This document shows, piece after piece, positions 5,337-28,222 of a stretch of 64,000 bases of DNA. This DNA comes from Candidatus Dojkabacteria bacterium (lineage in GTDB: Bacteria > Patescibacteriota > Dojkabacteria > J137), in assembly GCA_030950485.1 (NCBI GenBank), contig JAUZRK010000005.1:4449-68448 (forward strand), given 5' to 3'. Position 1 is the first letter of the stretch. Every line of letters starts with the position of its first letter. The notes beneath the pieces were generated by a model. The model saw nothing but the letters and a program-made list of their open reading frames with translations, was not told where the DNA came from and ran no database searches. The position numbers and the translations under genes were made by a program.

Positions 5337-6319
5337 TAGCTTTTAAAAATATTTCCAATAATATCCTCCAGACTAACTTCAGACACATCTAAATCATCAA
5401 CTGGGAATTTAGCAAGAACATCTCCGGCTATTTTTGTATGAACTTTCCGATCAACAGATAGAGTAGCACTAAAACCAGCACCATCATAGTCGATTACATC
5501 ACCATACTGACTTAGATCTTTCTTTAATACTTTTTTATTAAATATAAACTTAAGATTCTTATGCGAAGCGTATTCTTTAATAAGATTATCAATTGCACCG
5601 TCAAACACTAACCCTCCTTTATTTATAATAATTAATCGGTCACAAAGCTCTTGTACATCATCCATATAATGACTAGTTAGAAGAATTGTATTTTCATGTT
5701 TTTTATTTAGATCAAGAAAAAATTCTCGAATTTTCTTCTGAACTACTATATCAAGTCCAATAGTTGGTTCGTCAAGAAATACAACTTCAGGTTTATGTAG
5801 AAGAGCTGCTAAAAGTTCACACTTCATTCTCTGACCAAGAGAAAGTTTTCTAACTGGAATATCTAAAATATCTTTAGCATCTAACATTTCTGAAAGATAC
5901 TCAACTTGAGTCTTAAATGTTTTATCATTCATTTCATAAATTTCTTTATTCAAGACAAACCCTTCCATAGCTGGAAGATCCCACCAAAGTTGTGATCTCT
6001 GGCCTAAAACAAGTCCAATCTTTTTAAGAAACTCTTTCTTTCTTTTAAATGGTTTATAACCTAAAACTTCAATGATTCCATCAGATGGATAGAGTATTCC
6101 AGAAAGCATTTTTAAAGTTGTTGTTTTACCAGCACTATTTGGTCCTATAAATCCTACCTTTTCTCCTTTTTCAATAGTAAAACTAATATCATCAACAGCC
6201 TTTATATCAAAGTGCTCACGTTTAAAGAGACTCTTCAAAGTACCTTTTAAACCAGCTTCTTTTTTATACTGTTTAAAGTATCTTTTCAAGTTCTGAACTT
6301 TTACTACTGGCTTCGACAT
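5336..6319 (-). CDS. ABC transporter ATP-binding protein
   Basis: Walker A 'GPNSAGKTTTLKML', ABC signature 'LSLGQRMKCELLAAL', Walker B 'VVFLDEPTIGLD'. Confidence 0.85.
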   Translation of the reverse strand: MSKPVVKVQNLKRYFKQYKKEAGLKGTLKSLFKREHFDIKAVDDISFTIEKGEKVGFIGPNSAGKTTTLKMLSGILYPSDGIIEVLGYKPFKRKKEFLKKIGLVLGQRSQLWWDLPAMEGFVLNKEIYEMNDKTFKTQVEYLSEMLDAKDILDIPVRKLSLGQRMKCELLAALLHKPEVVFLDEPTIGLDIVVQKKIREFFLDLNKKHENTILLTSHYMDDVQELCDRLIIINKGGLVFDGAIDNLIKEYASHKNLKFIFNKKVLKKDLSQYGDVIDYDGAGFSATLSVDRKVHTKIAGDVLAKFPVDDLDVSEVSLEDIIGNIFKS

Positions 6320-24424: not shown

Positions 24425-24991
24425 TTAATATCCAAAGATATCAAAAGTTGCAGTACAAACCTCAACTTCCTCAACACTACAAGTTACATCAGCTTGATCG
24501 CTTACTGAAGAAGTCTCAATTACACAAGACGCATCTCCTGTAGACAGTGGTAGAGCATCAAATCTAATTCGACCACTAAAATCTACTGAAGTCCAATCTT
24601 CACTATAGCTTCCATCTTCAGTTTTAACTATATTTTCAGAATCATAAACTAAATCTGTAGGGAAGCCTTGATCCATACAATTACCAACCCCGTTCTCAAA
24701 AGTAAAGTAAGCGTAAACATCAGCAGCATCCATTATTCCCAATCCTATTTCAGAAAATGCAACTGGTCCCTCCATAGCTACTACAGCATCTTCTTCGATT
24801 TCATCAATATCAGAATCTGCAGATTCGCTCTCACTTTCTTCTTCATTTTCTACATCGTTTTCTTCTCTTTCTTCTTGCTGAGTTTCATCTTCATTCTTAT
24901 CTTTATCGTCTGAATCACTCATTAAAAAATAACCTCCAACCGCAACTACGGCAAGTATTAATACTGAAACTAAAGCTAATTGTTTAGACAT
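24425..24991 (-). CDS. Membrane-anchored/secreted acidic protein with Cys-containing C-terminal domain
   Basis: N-terminal TM (LALVSVLILAVVAVGGYFL), a D/E-rich linker, and a C-terminal about 110-aa domain. Confidence 0.5.
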   Translation of the reverse strand: MSKQLALVSVLILAVVAVGGYFLMSDSDDKDKNEDETQQEEREENDVENEEESESESADSDIDEIEEDAVVAMEGPVAFSEIGLGIMDAADVYAYFTFENGVGNCMDQGFPTDLVYDSENIVKTEDGSYSEDWTSVDFSGRIRFDALPLSTGDASCVIETSSVSDQADVTCSVEEVEVCTATFDIFGY

Positions 24992-25182: not shown

Positions 25183-25481
25183 CTACATTTCTTTATATAT
25201 CTCATAATCACCATTATAATCTTCTACCATATATCCATTTCTTTGATAAAAGCTTTTAGCTGCCTCTATATTCTCTGAACTAATTGTCCCAGATATCTCA
25301 GAAATACCTCTTCTTCTAGTTGCTGTAACATCTGTGTTCCAAATCCTCTACCTCTAGAATCAGGGTTAACAGTAATTTGTGTTAACCTACAACTAGGTGG
25401 AGAATTATAAGTAGGATCAGCTTCCTCATAAAAACCCCTTATATACCCATGTTTATAATTTAGTTTAAATTGCTGTCTCAT
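25183..25481 (-). pseudogene. GNAT N-acetyltransferase remnant: N-terminally truncated and frameshifted
   Basis: GNAT motif A 'RGRGFGTQMLQQLEEEV' lies in the 25266-25481 ORF. The C-terminal piece '…SENIEAAKSFYQRNGYMVEDYNGDYEIYKEM*' is in another frame, ending at 25183. In total under 100 codons. Confidence 0.5.
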
Positions 25482-25594
25482 ATTTTTAAATAAAGTGGTT
25501 GTGGATTATATCATAGGCGCTGAATACAGGCATCTTAATGAGTATGACTTTACTAGAATTCAACTAGAGTATAGTAAGGTTTATCTAGATTGCA

Positions 25595-25800
25595 ATTCCC
25601 AATCATTTGCTTGCTTTGTGTATCTTGTTGTCTTTAATGCGTGTCTCTCTAGTCGCAAACCTACATCATAGGTTTGTCCTACGTAATATCTGTCAATTTC
25701 TTTGGAGTAAAGTATATATACAAAATACATTGCCTTTTTTTTGAAGTGTAATAAATGGTGAGCGCTGAGGGATTCGAACCCCCGACCCTTTCGGTGTAAA
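25595..25800. repeat. Direct repeat copy 1 (about 206 bp, roughly 95% identical to 25935-26140): 3' half of tRNA-Val plus the first about 48 codons of the GIY-YIG gene
   Basis: My by-eye alignment of the two segments shows only scattered substitutions. Confidence 0.8.
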
Positions 25801-25843
25801 TCCCGAAGGCTTTCGGGACTCTAGTCAGCTGAGCTTTGAATTA
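25756..25843 (-). pseudogene. Degenerate tRNA-Val copy: intact 3' half (anticodon loop through CCA), hairpin insertion, non-pairing 5' acceptor strand
   Basis: The 3' half is identical to tRNA-Val(TAC). The 5' part reads AATTCAAAGCTCAGCTGACTAGAGTCCCGAAAGCCTTCGGGA, so the acceptor stem cannot form. Confidence 0.5.
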
Positions 25844-26072
25844 GAAATTCTATATAGCTTCTGCTTTTTTTCTTTTTAATCTCTTTCTCTCTTTTCATTG
25901 CCTCAGATCTTGTTTTATATTCTTCCGTATATTTTAATTCCCAATCGTTTGCTTGCTTTGTATACCTTGTTGTCTTTAATGCGTGTCTCTCTAGTCGCAA
26001 ACCTACATCATAGGTTTGTCCTACGTAATCTCTGTCAATTTCTTTGGAGTAGAGTATATATACAAAGTACAT
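25821..26072 (-). CDS. Small GIY-YIG domain nuclease (83 aa)
   Basis: 'MYFVYILYSKEIDRDYVGQTYDVGLRLERH' matches the GIY-X10-YIG…R…H core. Starts about 25 nt after the tRNA-Val 3' end. Its last about 9 codons read through tRNA D-arm-derived sequence. Confidence 0.65.
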   Translation of the reverse strand: MYFVYILYSKEIDRDYVGQTYDVGLRLERHALKTTRYTKQANDWELKYTEEYKTRSEAMKREKEIKKKKSRSYIEFLIQSSAD

Positions 26073-26140
26073 TGCCTTTTTTTTGAAGTGTAATAAATGG
26101 TGAGCGCTGAGGGATTCGAACCCCCGACCCTTTCGGTGTA
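25935..26140. repeat. Direct repeat copy 2, embedded in the intact tRNA-Val / GIY-YIG unit
   Basis: See copy 1. The offset between copies is 340 bp. Confidence 0.8.
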
Positions 26141-26174
26141 AACGAAATGCTCTAGCCAGCTGAGCTAAGCGCTC
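26098..26174 (-). tRNA. tRNA-Val (anticodon TAC), CCA encoded
   Basis: I folded the cloverleaf by hand. Acceptor GAGCGCT/AGCGCTC, D-arm GCTCAGCTGGCTAGAGC, anticodon stem TTTCG/CGAAA with loop TTTACAC, T-arm GGGGG-TTCGAAT-CCCTC. Confidence 0.85.
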
Positions 26175-26411
26175 TCAAATACCATTTATTTTAAAGAACT
26201 TAAGAATTATACAACAAGATTAGTTTCTATACAAAGCTTTTATAAATTTGATTCTATAACTCAATACAGATTGCATTATCCTAAATTACTTAAGACCCTT
26301 ATCAATGGGCTTAATTTAAAAATTAACTAGATACGTCTTCTAAATATTAGAATGATTGTGAATAGTCACGGGTGCACGAATTGTAAATGCATATATTCAT
26401 TATTATCTCAC

Positions 26412-26669
26412 TTATAATAAGTAGCTTGAAAATAGTGATAAAAGAATTACTACTCCAAGTATCCTACGAAAGTAATTTACACCACTGACTAATTCCATCA
26501 GTGCCCATATTAATAAAAAAGTGTTGGAGATAATAAATAGCTCAGTTTGTTTTGAGTTAAACAATGGAGATATTATTACTAGTCTTACTATTCCCCAGCC
26601 AATTATAGGCCAGTTAGGAAATTGAGCAATTACAATCTTTCCATTTTTATCCCTAAAGAGCCTATCCAT
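26412..26669 (-). CDS. Small integral membrane protein, 85 aa
   Basis: Two to three hydrophobic helices; ORF track. Confidence 0.4.
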   Translation of the reverse strand: MDRLFRDKNGKIVIAQFPNWPIIGWGIVRLVIISPLFNSKQTELFIISNTFLLIWALMELVSGVNYFRRILGVVILLSLFSSYLL

Positions 26670-27358
26670 TAAATTGCAGTAAAGCTTTCGGCAGATTTAA
26701 ACAGATTAGAGATATTTTCACTACCAGTTTTTGCTTTAATCTCAACTATATATGCAGAGTCAGAGTTAAATTTAACAAAATATCTTATATATCTACCTCT
26801 GATATCATTATCAATAAAGTTAGCTTCAAATAGACAAGCTTCACTTCCATTTAAATCTATGTATTTATCATTTCTAATATCAAAAGTATCATAAGCTACC
26901 GAGACTTGAGTAATTATTTCTTCTGAAAGCGAGCTACAAGTACTTCTGGATAGAGACCTTGAACCTGGAAGAGAAGTGATTGTTATACTTTCAGAAAGGT
27001 CTGCATCGCTATCTGCTAATATTTGAACTCTGTCTCCAATTTTAATTTCCCAATTATCTAAATAGTAAATTTTATATTTTCTATTCTTATATGTTTCATA
27101 CCCTATATAATCCTCATCTGAAGTTGCAATGGATTCTTCAAATTTATAATTATATTCAATTTCAAGATCGTCAGCTACATCAATATTTTCTTCATCTTTC
27201 ACGCAGGGGCCATAATCTTGTGCAAATGGACCATGATAAATACAATCACCGCCACTATACAAATAACCAAATGCTACGAATCTAGCAAACAAAAAGCAAG
27301 ATGTTGCAATTATTAGAATAAAAATTCCTTTTAATATTAAAGATAAAACATTTTCCAT
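26669..27358 (-). CDS. Membrane-anchored hypothetical protein with acidic linker
   Basis: N-terminal TM (ILKGIFILIIATSCFLFARFVAF) and a D/E-rich segment. Architecture is similar to 24425-24991 and 27443-28222. Confidence 0.5.
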   Translation of the reverse strand: MENVLSLILKGIFILIIATSCFLFARFVAFGYLYSGGDCIYHGPFAQDYGPCVKDEENIDVADDLEIEYNYKFEESIATSDEDYIGYETYKNRKYKIYYLDNWEIKIGDRVQILADSDADLSESITITSLPGSRSLSRSTCSSLSEEIITQVSVAYDTFDIRNDKYIDLNGSEACLFEANFIDNDIRGRYIRYFVKFNSDSAYIVEIKAKTGSENISNLFKSAESFTAI

Positions 27359-27442: not shown

Positions 27443-28222
27443 TTATTTTAAGCTAAAAGAAGATTGAACCTTCTCTCCAGCTTTTAAATTATCTCCTTTT
27501 GATCCAGTGTTAGATAGAGTTACTGAATATGCAACATCATCGTTTGCTACTGAAATAATATCTGTATTAATTGTTACAAAGAAAGAAATACTTGCACTAA
27601 ACTGACAAGCTTTATCTCCTCCAACTTTAATTTCTTTAGCATCACTTGTTTCAATTCCTAAATCGAAATCATCTTCAGATATATCAAATGTCTTATCTAA
27701 GAAGTCTTGACAATTACCTTCTAGGATCATGTCTTTATCTTCATCTTTTAGTTTCTGAATATTTACTGTAACAGTGTCATCAAGATCACTGAAATCAATA
27801 TCTGCAGGATCTGTATTTTCTAAAGCCTCTATTTGAGCTGTTGGTTGTAAACTTAACGACTCTTCTCCTGCTGTATCGTCATATTCCCATTCTTTAGGAT
27901 ATCCTATTTCGTATTCTGCAGTTTCGTAAACCTCATATCCATCTGGAATTCCTCCTTCTGAATCTTCACTATCGTCTCCTCCAAAAGCGAAGAAACTAAC
28001 AGCAATAACTAGTATTAAGACTACAAGTGCACTTACAACTCCGATAATCATAGTTGTATTATTATCTTTAACTGTAATCTTCTTTGTATCAACTACTTCA
28101 ACTTTTTCTGATTTTTCTTTAGTATCAGTCTCTTTAGCTTTTGTGGCTTTTTTTTCTTTAGCTTCAGCCATATAAATATATTGGTAATAATTAAATTTAA
28201 AATATGTAACACAATATATCAT
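27443..28222 (-). CDS. Membrane-anchored hypothetical protein with K/E-rich N-terminus and acidic linker
   Basis: TM 'MIIGVVSALVVLILVIAVSFFAF' followed by GGDDSEDSEGG and an about 170-aa C-terminal domain. Confidence 0.5.
   Translation of the reverse strand: MIYCVTYFKFNYYQYIYMAEAKEKKATKAKETDTKEKSEKVEVVDTKKITVKDNNTTMIIGVVSALVVLILVIAVSFFAFGGDDSEDSEGGIPDGYEVYETAEYEIGYPKEWEYDDTAGEESLSLQPTAQIEALENTDPADIDFSDLDDTVTVNIQKLKDEDKDMILEGNCQDFLDKTFDISEDDFDLGIETSDAKEIKVGGDKACQFSASISFFVTINTDIISVANDDVAYSVTLSNTGSKGDNLKAGEKVQSSFSLK

Follow-up and report, generated by a model that had tools for sequence, protein, structure and literature searches.

Why should a tRNA gene be followed by a miniature nuclease gene and then by a second, incomplete edition of both? 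The question is raised by a locus on the minus strand of a 64-kb stretch of DNA (64,000 nucleotides (nt), the whole of which is called the window here) from a metagenome-assembled genome (MAG) of Candidatus Dojkabacteria, a member of the Candidate Phyla Radiation (CPR). Going by its sequence, we place this locus with high confidence in a family of elements in which a functional tRNA is followed by a mini GIY-YIG open reading frame (ORF) and by a copy of the tRNA that has been recoded by a hairpin. It probably consists of one complete and one truncated unit of a selfish cassette that resides in tRNA genes and encodes a UPF0213/Slx1-like GIY-YIG nuclease, the number of units having been changed by recombination. 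The parts of the locus are the following.

26098-26174, minus strand: functional tRNA-Val(TAC) with encoded CCA, the upstream member of the cassette (ARAGORN; Rfam RF00005, 68 bits, full length)
26073-26097, minus strand: spacer 1, 25 nt (TTTATTACACTTCAAAAAAAAGGCA), with an AAGG Shine-Dalgarno-like motif 4 nt ahead of the ATG (sequence)
25821-26072, minus strand: intact stand-alone GIY-YIG nuclease ORF, 83 amino acids (aa), NCBI MDQ6985130.1 (PF01541, E = 5.9e-14)
25756-25842, minus strand: tRNA-like copy, here psi-tRNA, uncalled as a tRNA (sequence; repeat search)
25801-25818, minus strand: hallmark hairpin TCCCGAA-AGCC-TTCGGGA, a 7-bp stem with a tetraloop (sequence, folding, covariation in relatives)
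25731-25755, minus strand: spacer 2, 25 nt, identical to spacer 1 (sequence; repeat search)
25581-25730, minus strand: N-terminal GIY-YIG stub of the second unit, a 49-aa ORF, NCBI MDQ6985129.1 (PF01541 match, profile positions 1-48)
25928-26142, minus strand: repeat copy A, covering tRNA positions 32-77, the spacer and GIY-YIG codons 1-48 (repeat search)
25586-25800, minus strand: repeat copy B, 96% identical to copy A and identical to the single copy of a sister MAG (repeat search; alignment to the sister locus, L001)

The first-pass annotation, made without database searches, had described a tRNA-Val(TAC) followed 25 nt past its CCA by an 83-codon GIY-YIG ORF, together with a repeat of about 206 bp that recurs at a distance of 340 bp with few mismatches. 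ARAGORN, Rfam and PF01541 bear out the first two parts, and a repeat search measures the third as a direct repeat of 215 nt with a period of 342 nt. The D-arm is duplicated as well (25819-25835 and 26150-26166, 16 of 17 nt, spacing 331), so that the duplicated unit begins at about tRNA position 8. The annotation had also expected one functional and one pseudo tRNA; ARAGORN and Rfam call a single tRNA at the locus, and the psi-tRNA is not scored by Rfam even at E<=10. Both ORFs carry the NCBI label "GIY-YIG nuclease family protein".

The intact ORF runs into the tRNA copy. Its last five codons and its TAG stop (25823-25821, in ...GCTGACTAGAG) are made of D-arm-derived sequence, in which the ORF had been noted before to end, and the stop falls within the D-loop of the psi-tRNA, 3 nt ahead of the hairpin. 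The 5' acceptor strand of the psi-tRNA is occupied by ORF codons (AATTCAA) instead of tRNA sequence, and 18 nt, TCCCGAAAGCCTTCGGGA, stand where the functional tRNA has the 7 nt CATTTCG as the 5' strand of its anticodon stem. From the anticodon loop through the CCA, the copy is identical to the functional tRNA-Val. The second GIY-YIG reading frame stops at the end of the repeat (...WELQSR*), also as described earlier: its homology to the intact copy ends after codon 46-47 and the region of the catalytic Glu is absent, and the stub, judged by its sequence, is presumably inactive.

Whether this layout is an accident of one genome was addressed with homologues of 37-64% identity, represented by 80 loci from species-representative genomes, almost all of them Bacteroidota and their relatives in the FCB group (Fibrobacterota-Chlorobiota-Bacteroidota), and by 80 loci from metagenomes. 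A tighter alignment was used for the locus search, as the first was too diverse to search with. An upstream tRNA was counted when it lay on the same strand and ended at most 160 nt before the ORF, and the counts are limited to loci with enough upstream DNA. Such a tRNA lies 13-150 nt upstream of the GIY-YIG ORF in 103 of the 144 evaluable loci, mostly Bacteroidota; tRNA gene density would place one there by chance in about 1% of cases or less. The genome loci contribute 56/75 (tRNA ending 21-150 nt before the GIY-YIG start, median 46) and the metagenome loci, an independent set, 47/69. Ala-GGC is the commonest of the tRNAs, and Val-TAC, Asp-GTC, Leu-TAA, Met, Asn-GTT, Arg, Ser-GCT and Cys also occur.

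In 48 genome loci, local alignment (score of at least 30) found a copy of the cognate tRNA where the ORF ends or just beyond, spanning tRNA position ~5-9 to the 3' end or only positions 45-75. Where the sequence was inspected, the ORF terminates at the TAG of the D-loop (...AGC TCA GCT GGC TAG, read as SSAG*). In relatives, the stretch between tRNA and ORF usually is the intrinsic terminator of the tRNA, and the ATG follows immediately on its T-run; unlike in most Bacteroidota relatives, a search for terminator-like sites found no terminator hairpin in the window spacer. These comparisons show the predicted cassette unit to be a functional tRNA, a spacer with a GIY-YIG ORF of ~83 aa, and a tRNA copy with the D-loop TAG stop and a hairpin-recoded anticodon arm, and they show this architecture to be the rule for the protein family as sampled by sequence. 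In the window all three features are present: the tRNA 25 nt upstream, the ORF end in a D-arm copy, and the hairpin. A second example outside the FCB group is locus L162 (2399-2833 of its contig in GCA_038856325.1), a cassette on tRNA-Met in which the ORF reads through the recoded copy. That assembly is labelled Candidatus Pacearchaeota, a DPANN archaeon; BacA, TruB and a DXP-synthase fragment on the contig read as bacterial-type, and the taxonomic label may be wrong.

The hairpin is the most distinctive part of the unit. The first-pass annotation was right that the 5' part of the tRNA copy is replaced and that a hairpin is inserted, and wrong in regarding the copy as crippled by decay, for the hairpin is a conserved and covarying hallmark of the family. 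In 55/78 genome and 39/74 metagenome loci, a hairpin of the form (T)CCCG-N4-16-CGGG(A) was found between positions -30 and +90 relative to the stop codon, against a background of 0.043 per 120 nt in the flanks. It most often starts exactly 5 nt past the stop, where it replaces the anticodon arm, and 58 of 72 hairpins are a 7-bp stem with a tetraloop. The three stem pairs that lie outside the search pattern all covary (A:T versus C:G, A:T versus T:A, T:A versus C:G). In an alignment of 44 sequences, 98.4% of the cells are paired, with 29 double-change cells versus 8.3 in shuffles, a value reached by none of 500 shuffles, and the pairing collapses in slid registers. The window itself, with ~30% G+C in this region, contains CCCG-N-CGGG only once in 64 kb.

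Folding supports the hairpin alone and no cloverleaf: the window hairpin folds as predicted, and the RNA fold of the whole psi-tRNA has a z of -1.6. Rfam searches with the tRNA copies of the window and of 15 related loci brought up no match outside the tRNA family. We infer that the hairpin disables the extra tRNA copy. A role as an intrinsic terminator was considered for it and rejected, as no T-run follows it in the window or in relatives.

Hairpins occupy the anticodon arm and, in some lineages, the T-loop, where a second, similar hairpin was found in L005, L006, L010, L033, L041, L054, L063, L073, L074, L078 and L079. These are the two sublocations of tRNA genes that integrases reportedly prefer (Williams 2002). 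The Asn lineage has its own version of the stem (TCCGGCA..TGCCGGA), and in L030 and L061 the hairpin is decayed though the ORF is intact. Some Spirosoma/Algoriphagus loci (L036, L063, L073, L074) hold up to three near-identical hairpins per locus (CCCGCAGCA[A/T]TGCGGG), including the tRNA's own terminator, and hairpin sequences seem to be copied within a locus.

Remnants of the cognate anticodon loop are still visible in the inner sequence of the hairpin, which varies with the type of tRNA, with AAAGC[A/T/G]TT in the Ala type and ATTTATAAT and similar sequences in the Bacteroidota Val type. The window hairpin has AAAGCCTT, which is of the Ala type (tRNA-Ala(GGC) of Bacteroidota) and is followed directly by the native Val anticodon loop. 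The sequence of the window psi-tRNA thus suggests a chimera, in which a 5' module from a tRNA-Ala cassette would have been joined at the anticodon loop to the Dojkabacteria tRNA-Val, and this would imply transfer between tRNA species and between phyla. The nearest relatives of the window protein are likewise from tRNA-Ala-type cassettes, at 57-60% identity, and metagenome contigs yielded no relative closer than 60% identity.

How old is the duplication in the window? Over the initial 75 nt of the repeat, which take in the tRNA 3' half, the spacer and ATGTA, the two copies are identical, and every difference falls in the coding part. Within codons 1-46, six synonymous differences and one non-synonymous difference separate the intact copy from the stub (D15 versus Y15, Y being the family consensus), and over 48 aligned codons the proportion of synonymous differences (pS) is 0.21 and the synonymous divergence (dS) ~0.24. 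At the synonymous rate, ~5 differences would be expected in the 25-nt spacer, and the calculated chance of zero is ~0.003. Coding divergence of this size beside 75 identical nt means that the window copies are no fresh product of slippage, and the earlier suggestion of a slippage duplication in progress has to be given up. Both GIY-YIG copies have therefore evolved as coding sequence, and the tRNA/spacer block has either been homogenised or is the boundary of a recombination event.

A second state of the locus is found in the sister MAG (GCA_030949735.1, contig JAUZSD010000003.1, locus L001), which also encodes the 49-aa stub. Over 12 kb it shows 0 substitutions to the window outside the repeat and only differences in homopolymer length; the alignment of L001 5931-12150, on which the identity of repeat copy B with the single copy rests, has 0 mismatches. 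L001 is a single unit, with the intact tRNA-Val, the stub-type copy and then the same downstream DNA. Absent from it are 342 bp, in which the window has its intact nuclease gene together with the hairpin-bearing 5' part of the psi-tRNA. Judged from the sequences, recombination inside the 75-nt identical block would interconvert the one-unit and two-unit states in either direction. If the sister genome reached its one-unit state in this way, it would have lost its only intact nuclease gene. As for the homopolymers, the L001 tRNA-Val (5899-5976) has six G where the window has five, at the junction of variable loop and T-stem, and its spacer seven A where the window has eight; the indel-only pattern suggests homopolymer errors of long-read assembly and not real variation.

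It is improbable that the difference arose during assembly, either as a chimera of full-cassette and stub alleles joined through the 75-nt block or as a collapsed repeat in the sister MAG. Both sequences are MAGs that differ only in homopolymer lengths and one unit, an exact repeat of 75 nt can mislead short-k assemblers, and many related loci lie at contig ends. However, unrelated assemblies, isolate genomes and long contigs among them, commonly show a tRNA copy followed by a spacer and a further GIY-YIG copy or stub, and the full ORF, the hairpin-bearing copy and the stub exist in the window DNA whatever the count of units.

The same 215-nt direct repeat and 342-bp difference between near-identical assemblies could be put down to an ordinary duplication of a tRNA and its neighbour gene by slippage or unequal crossing-over, followed by decay, with no role for the nuclease. 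We consider this very improbable, since the layout of D-loop stop and CCCG/CGGG hairpin recurs in more than 90 independent loci, the window hairpin is of a foreign (Ala) type, and the copies have diverged to a dS of ~0.24 with six synonymous changes against one non-synonymous. Further copies occur elsewhere in the family: 43/160 loci have extra same-strand GIY-YIG copies, mostly at offsets of 300-400 nt, with three units in L059 and six, some of them frameshifted, in L066. An N-terminal stub of 16-40 codons closes at least ten of the arrays, and the ~48-codon stub of the window is thus typical.

A tRNA-Ala cassette occupies an orthologous locus within Flavobacterium and within Flagellimonas, with a conserved upstream flank, and syntenic Flavobacterium orthologues have a proportion of non-synonymous differences (pN) of 0.04-0.2 versus a pS of 0.3-0.85. 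Among nuclease pairs from these genera, example values are a non-synonymous divergence (dN) of 0.049 versus a dS of 0.395, and 0.035 versus 0.651, which shows strong purifying selection on the nuclease. The 3' part of the tRNA copy follows its own functional neighbour. Compared over its last 28 nt with the tRNA of the same locus, it matches at 28/28 in 19 of 41 Ala loci and at no fewer than 26/28 in 24, versus a median of 18/28 against tRNA-Ala from other loci, which indicates repeated conversion, selection, or both. In Flavobacterium ajazii (L052), a Flavo-1 RNA (Rfam RF01705, 79.8 bits, 1915-1990) lies ~0.9 kb upstream of the tRNA-Ala cassette, probably by coincidence.

Duplication of the 3' part of a tRNA had led the first-pass annotation to think of an integrase scar, and a genomic island inserted by an integrase at the tRNA gene would indeed leave a duplicated tRNA 3' part flanking inserted DNA. 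As in tyrosine-integrase islands and prophages, there is DNA between a functional tRNA and a displaced partial copy, and the functional gene is preserved. Unlike such islands, the cassette is only ~340 bp long and without an integrase, its near-whole tRNA copy is recoded by a hairpin, and its repeats are maintained and do not decay. Neither the insert of 250 bp nor the surrounding ORFs (23.5-29 kb) yielded an integrase, the D-arm is retained in the copy, and the repeat continues 170 nt past the tRNA, through the spacer and 48 codons of the nuclease gene. A conserved hairpin and an overlap of ORF and tRNA are foreign to att sites. An island scar is accordingly the least credible of the explanations weighed here.

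What kind of nuclease is encoded? The first-pass annotation had made its case depend on a GIY-YIG profile match, and the 83-aa protein matches PF01541 with 52.6 bits (cut-off 22.6) at profile positions 1-74 of 78. Across 27 homologues, Y5, Y16, G18, H30 and E62 do not vary and R26 is near-invariant (>=90%), and the window protein has all six; they include the two Tyr about 11 residues apart, the Arg and the downstream Glu of the catalytic motif, and their assignment as catalytic follows what is known of I-TevI and UvrC. It is a bare catalytic domain, the GIY-YIG domain making up residues 1-71 and being the only Pfam domain, and family members are 78-95 aa long throughout. The combination of a nuclease with a DNA-binding domain, from which free-standing homing endonucleases of the Seg/Mob type have their long recognition site, is thus absent from this single-domain protein.

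Searched against the PDB, the family profile matched UPF0213 BH0048 (1zg2, 4.6e-12), EF2693 (1ywl, 2.8e-09) and SLX1 chains (8e-05 to 6e-03) and no other PDB families, and the window sequence on its own matched 1zg2 at 2.5e-05. These matches place the protein, as far as its sequence goes, in a UPF0213/Slx1-like clade rather than with UvrC or the intron-encoded I-TevI type. UPF0213/YhbQ proteins, the best structural sequence matches, are likewise small, single-domain and bacterial. Slx1 carries a zinc-finger/RING domain at its C-terminus and acts together with Slx4; the cassette has neither such a domain nor an Slx4, and Slx1 proper is excluded by size, as 83 aa leave no room for the C-terminal domain. 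An exact look-up of the 83-aa sequence returned no entry, and PADLOC defence models, PHROGs (no homing-endonuclease family) and NCBIfam gave no meaningful match for the protein. A 451-aa glycyl-tRNA synthetase-like protein (P0121) in the 90%-identity cluster of the stub is a clustering artefact.

The earlier suggestion of a small selfish element linked to tRNA genes is the one that fits the comparative data, namely a layout found at many tRNA species and in several phyla, tandem arrays, and differences in copy number. The closest known system is SegB, a free-standing GIY-YIG homing endonuclease that phages T4 and T6 encode among their clustered tRNA genes and that cuts within tRNA genes (PMC13096335). 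In T6 it generates unstable tandem repeats via phage recombination proteins, the unit being tRNA-Tyr with a C-terminally truncated segB; there is microhomology of the tRNA 5' end with the segB 3' end, and the SegB C-terminus could be 28 aa shorter (PMC13096335). The likenesses are a GIY-YIG gene adjoining a tRNA, tandem units of tRNA and nuclease with truncated nuclease copies, and a junction of the nuclease 3' end with the tRNA 5' region; SegB arrays are unstable and depend on recombination, and the unit number of the cassette is polymorphic. By our own reading, the SegB cleavage motif RAWTSGAAC is the reverse complement of the tRNA T-loop consensus GTTCGAATC, the very place where some relatives of the window cassette carry their second hairpin. 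SegB differs in being phage-encoded and larger, whereas the cassette protein is chromosomal and has 83 aa and a catalytic domain only. Neither a hairpin-recoded tRNA copy nor a D-loop stop is described for SegB in the passages of PMC13096335 used here.

By analogy, the cassette may ride on the tRNA transcription unit as a SegB-like selfish element. Its nuclease would break DNA in or beside tRNA genes, possibly by recognising structure as Slx1 relatives do, and homologous repair between the tRNA-derived repeats could then duplicate, delete, homogenise and occasionally transplant units. Besides disabling the tRNA copy, the hairpin may remove a cleavage site or shorten the homology through which the cassette would be deleted; alternatively, it might stabilise the 3' end of a transcript or be bound by the nuclease. 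Our confidence in such a selfish, amplifying mechanism is moderate.

Several observations sit badly with it. Sequence-specific homing is hard to picture for an 83-aa protein without a DNA-binding domain, and simple target-site immunity does not work as an explanation, because the functional upstream tRNA keeps any target that a tRNA carries. The difference between one and two units could be one of assembly. No relatives of the nuclease were found in viral contigs. Stable, constrained orthologues suit a gene useful to the host and a persistent parasite equally. In a minority of loci (L048, L095, L123, L135, L138), no tRNA precedes the GIY-YIG gene, and an intact one (Asp, Ala, Asn, Tyr or Lys) follows it directly; in L123, where an intact tRNA-Asn is called, the first 10 nt of that tRNA are shared with the ORF. 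Such loci may represent an alternative arrangement or an ancestral one. Finally, the comparison with related genomes for which the first-pass annotation had called brought up the one-unit sister with its stub and no truly empty site: an empty or differently occupied tRNA-Val site was sought in related Dojkabacteria via RlmN homologues and none was found, the closest RlmN relatives being 72% and 62-65% identical and lying on non-syntenic contigs that carry no tRNA.

A tentative variant gives the recoded copy a more active part. On this reading, the hairpin-recoded tRNA copy would be no disabled leftover and would work together with the nuclease, either in cis as a DNA site or as a tRNA-like RNA bound by the single-domain enzyme, in a two-component system that recognises, cuts or converts tRNA genes, or regulates itself.

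Rather unlikely, in our view, is a domesticated host operon, in which tRNA, nuclease and a hairpin-bearing tRNA-like RNA would serve the cell and arrays would be by-products; it might help to maintain the tRNA locus, keep integrating elements out of tRNA genes, or act as a nuclease under RNA control. An operon of this kind would account for a locus that is orthologous across a genus and under strong purifying selection, for a conserved and covarying hairpin, for the maintained 3' part of the tRNA copy, for the failure to find phage copies in viral contigs, and for hairpins that sit at the two places in tRNA genes reportedly preferred by integrases. It is less easily squared with the unmatched PADLOC models, with an unstable copy number in which frameshifted or stub copies are common, and with a sister MAG that has lost its sole intact copy with no other change. 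The decay of the hairpin beside an intact ORF in some loci (L030, L061), the presence of the cassette on many tRNA species and the chimeric 3' module in the window also speak against it.

To return to the cassette as a probable selfish element, it belongs with the GIY-YIG nucleases associated with tRNA genes; it is chromosomal, minimal in size and provided with a distinctive recoded tRNA partner. The architecture of tRNA, mini GIY-YIG and recoded copy was found undescribed in the full-text literature searched, which leaves out most subscription journals, and a text search of the superfamily review PMC1564403 met no mention of a tRNA linkage of UPF0213 in the text covered. Bacteroidota genomes abound in small proteins labelled "GIY-YIG nuclease family protein" for which no function is known, and for this clade they can now be seen as part of a fixed three-part tRNA module. 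It is suggested that the cassettes are a chromosomal counterpart of SegB-driven tRNA amplification in phages and a route by which the copy number of tRNA genes and the structure of tRNA loci change. If the tRNA copy is indeed the partner of the nuclease, this would be a widespread, undescribed class of tRNA-gene-resident elements in Bacteroidota and some CPR bacteria. The conserved hairpin offers a concrete object, be it a target, an immunity device or an RNA partner.

We also suggest that cassettes repeatedly break contigs and give rise to spurious tRNA calls. ARAGORN calls many recoded copies tRNA-Ser, Pro, Leu, Tyr, Ile, 'Stop' or '???' (L059 2535-3302, L066 2122-3339, and L014, L023, L027, L051, L085, L099, L101, L106 and L142), and Rfam scores some at 31-38 bits, just above the tRNA gathering threshold; Bacteroidota annotations may hold spurious tRNA genes of this origin. 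The contig ends within a few hundred bases of the locus in L003, L004, L008, L019, L033, L040, L042, L065, L070, L071, L080 and others, which suggests that short-read assemblies often break at the cassettes or their arrays.

Just downstream of the stub lies what may be a degraded gene for a GNAT-like acetyltransferase, a 71-aa ORF at 25266-25481 (minus strand) that extends to ~25170. The ORF matches the middle of the profile only (positions 47-90 of 116) and is followed by in-frame stops and more GNAT-like residues, in both MAGs. A full-length GNAT beside RlmN in L167 has no detectable homology to the window fragment, and a single deletion of the GIY-YIG 3' end together with the GNAT 5' end is therefore not demonstrable. 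Three neighbouring ORFs (24425-24991, 26669-27358 and 27443-28222, minus strand) have an N-terminal hydrophobic segment, two of them with long acidic low-complexity stretches, and no significant Pfam match; we regard them as surface or secreted proteins of the uncharacterised sort that is typical of CPR genomes.

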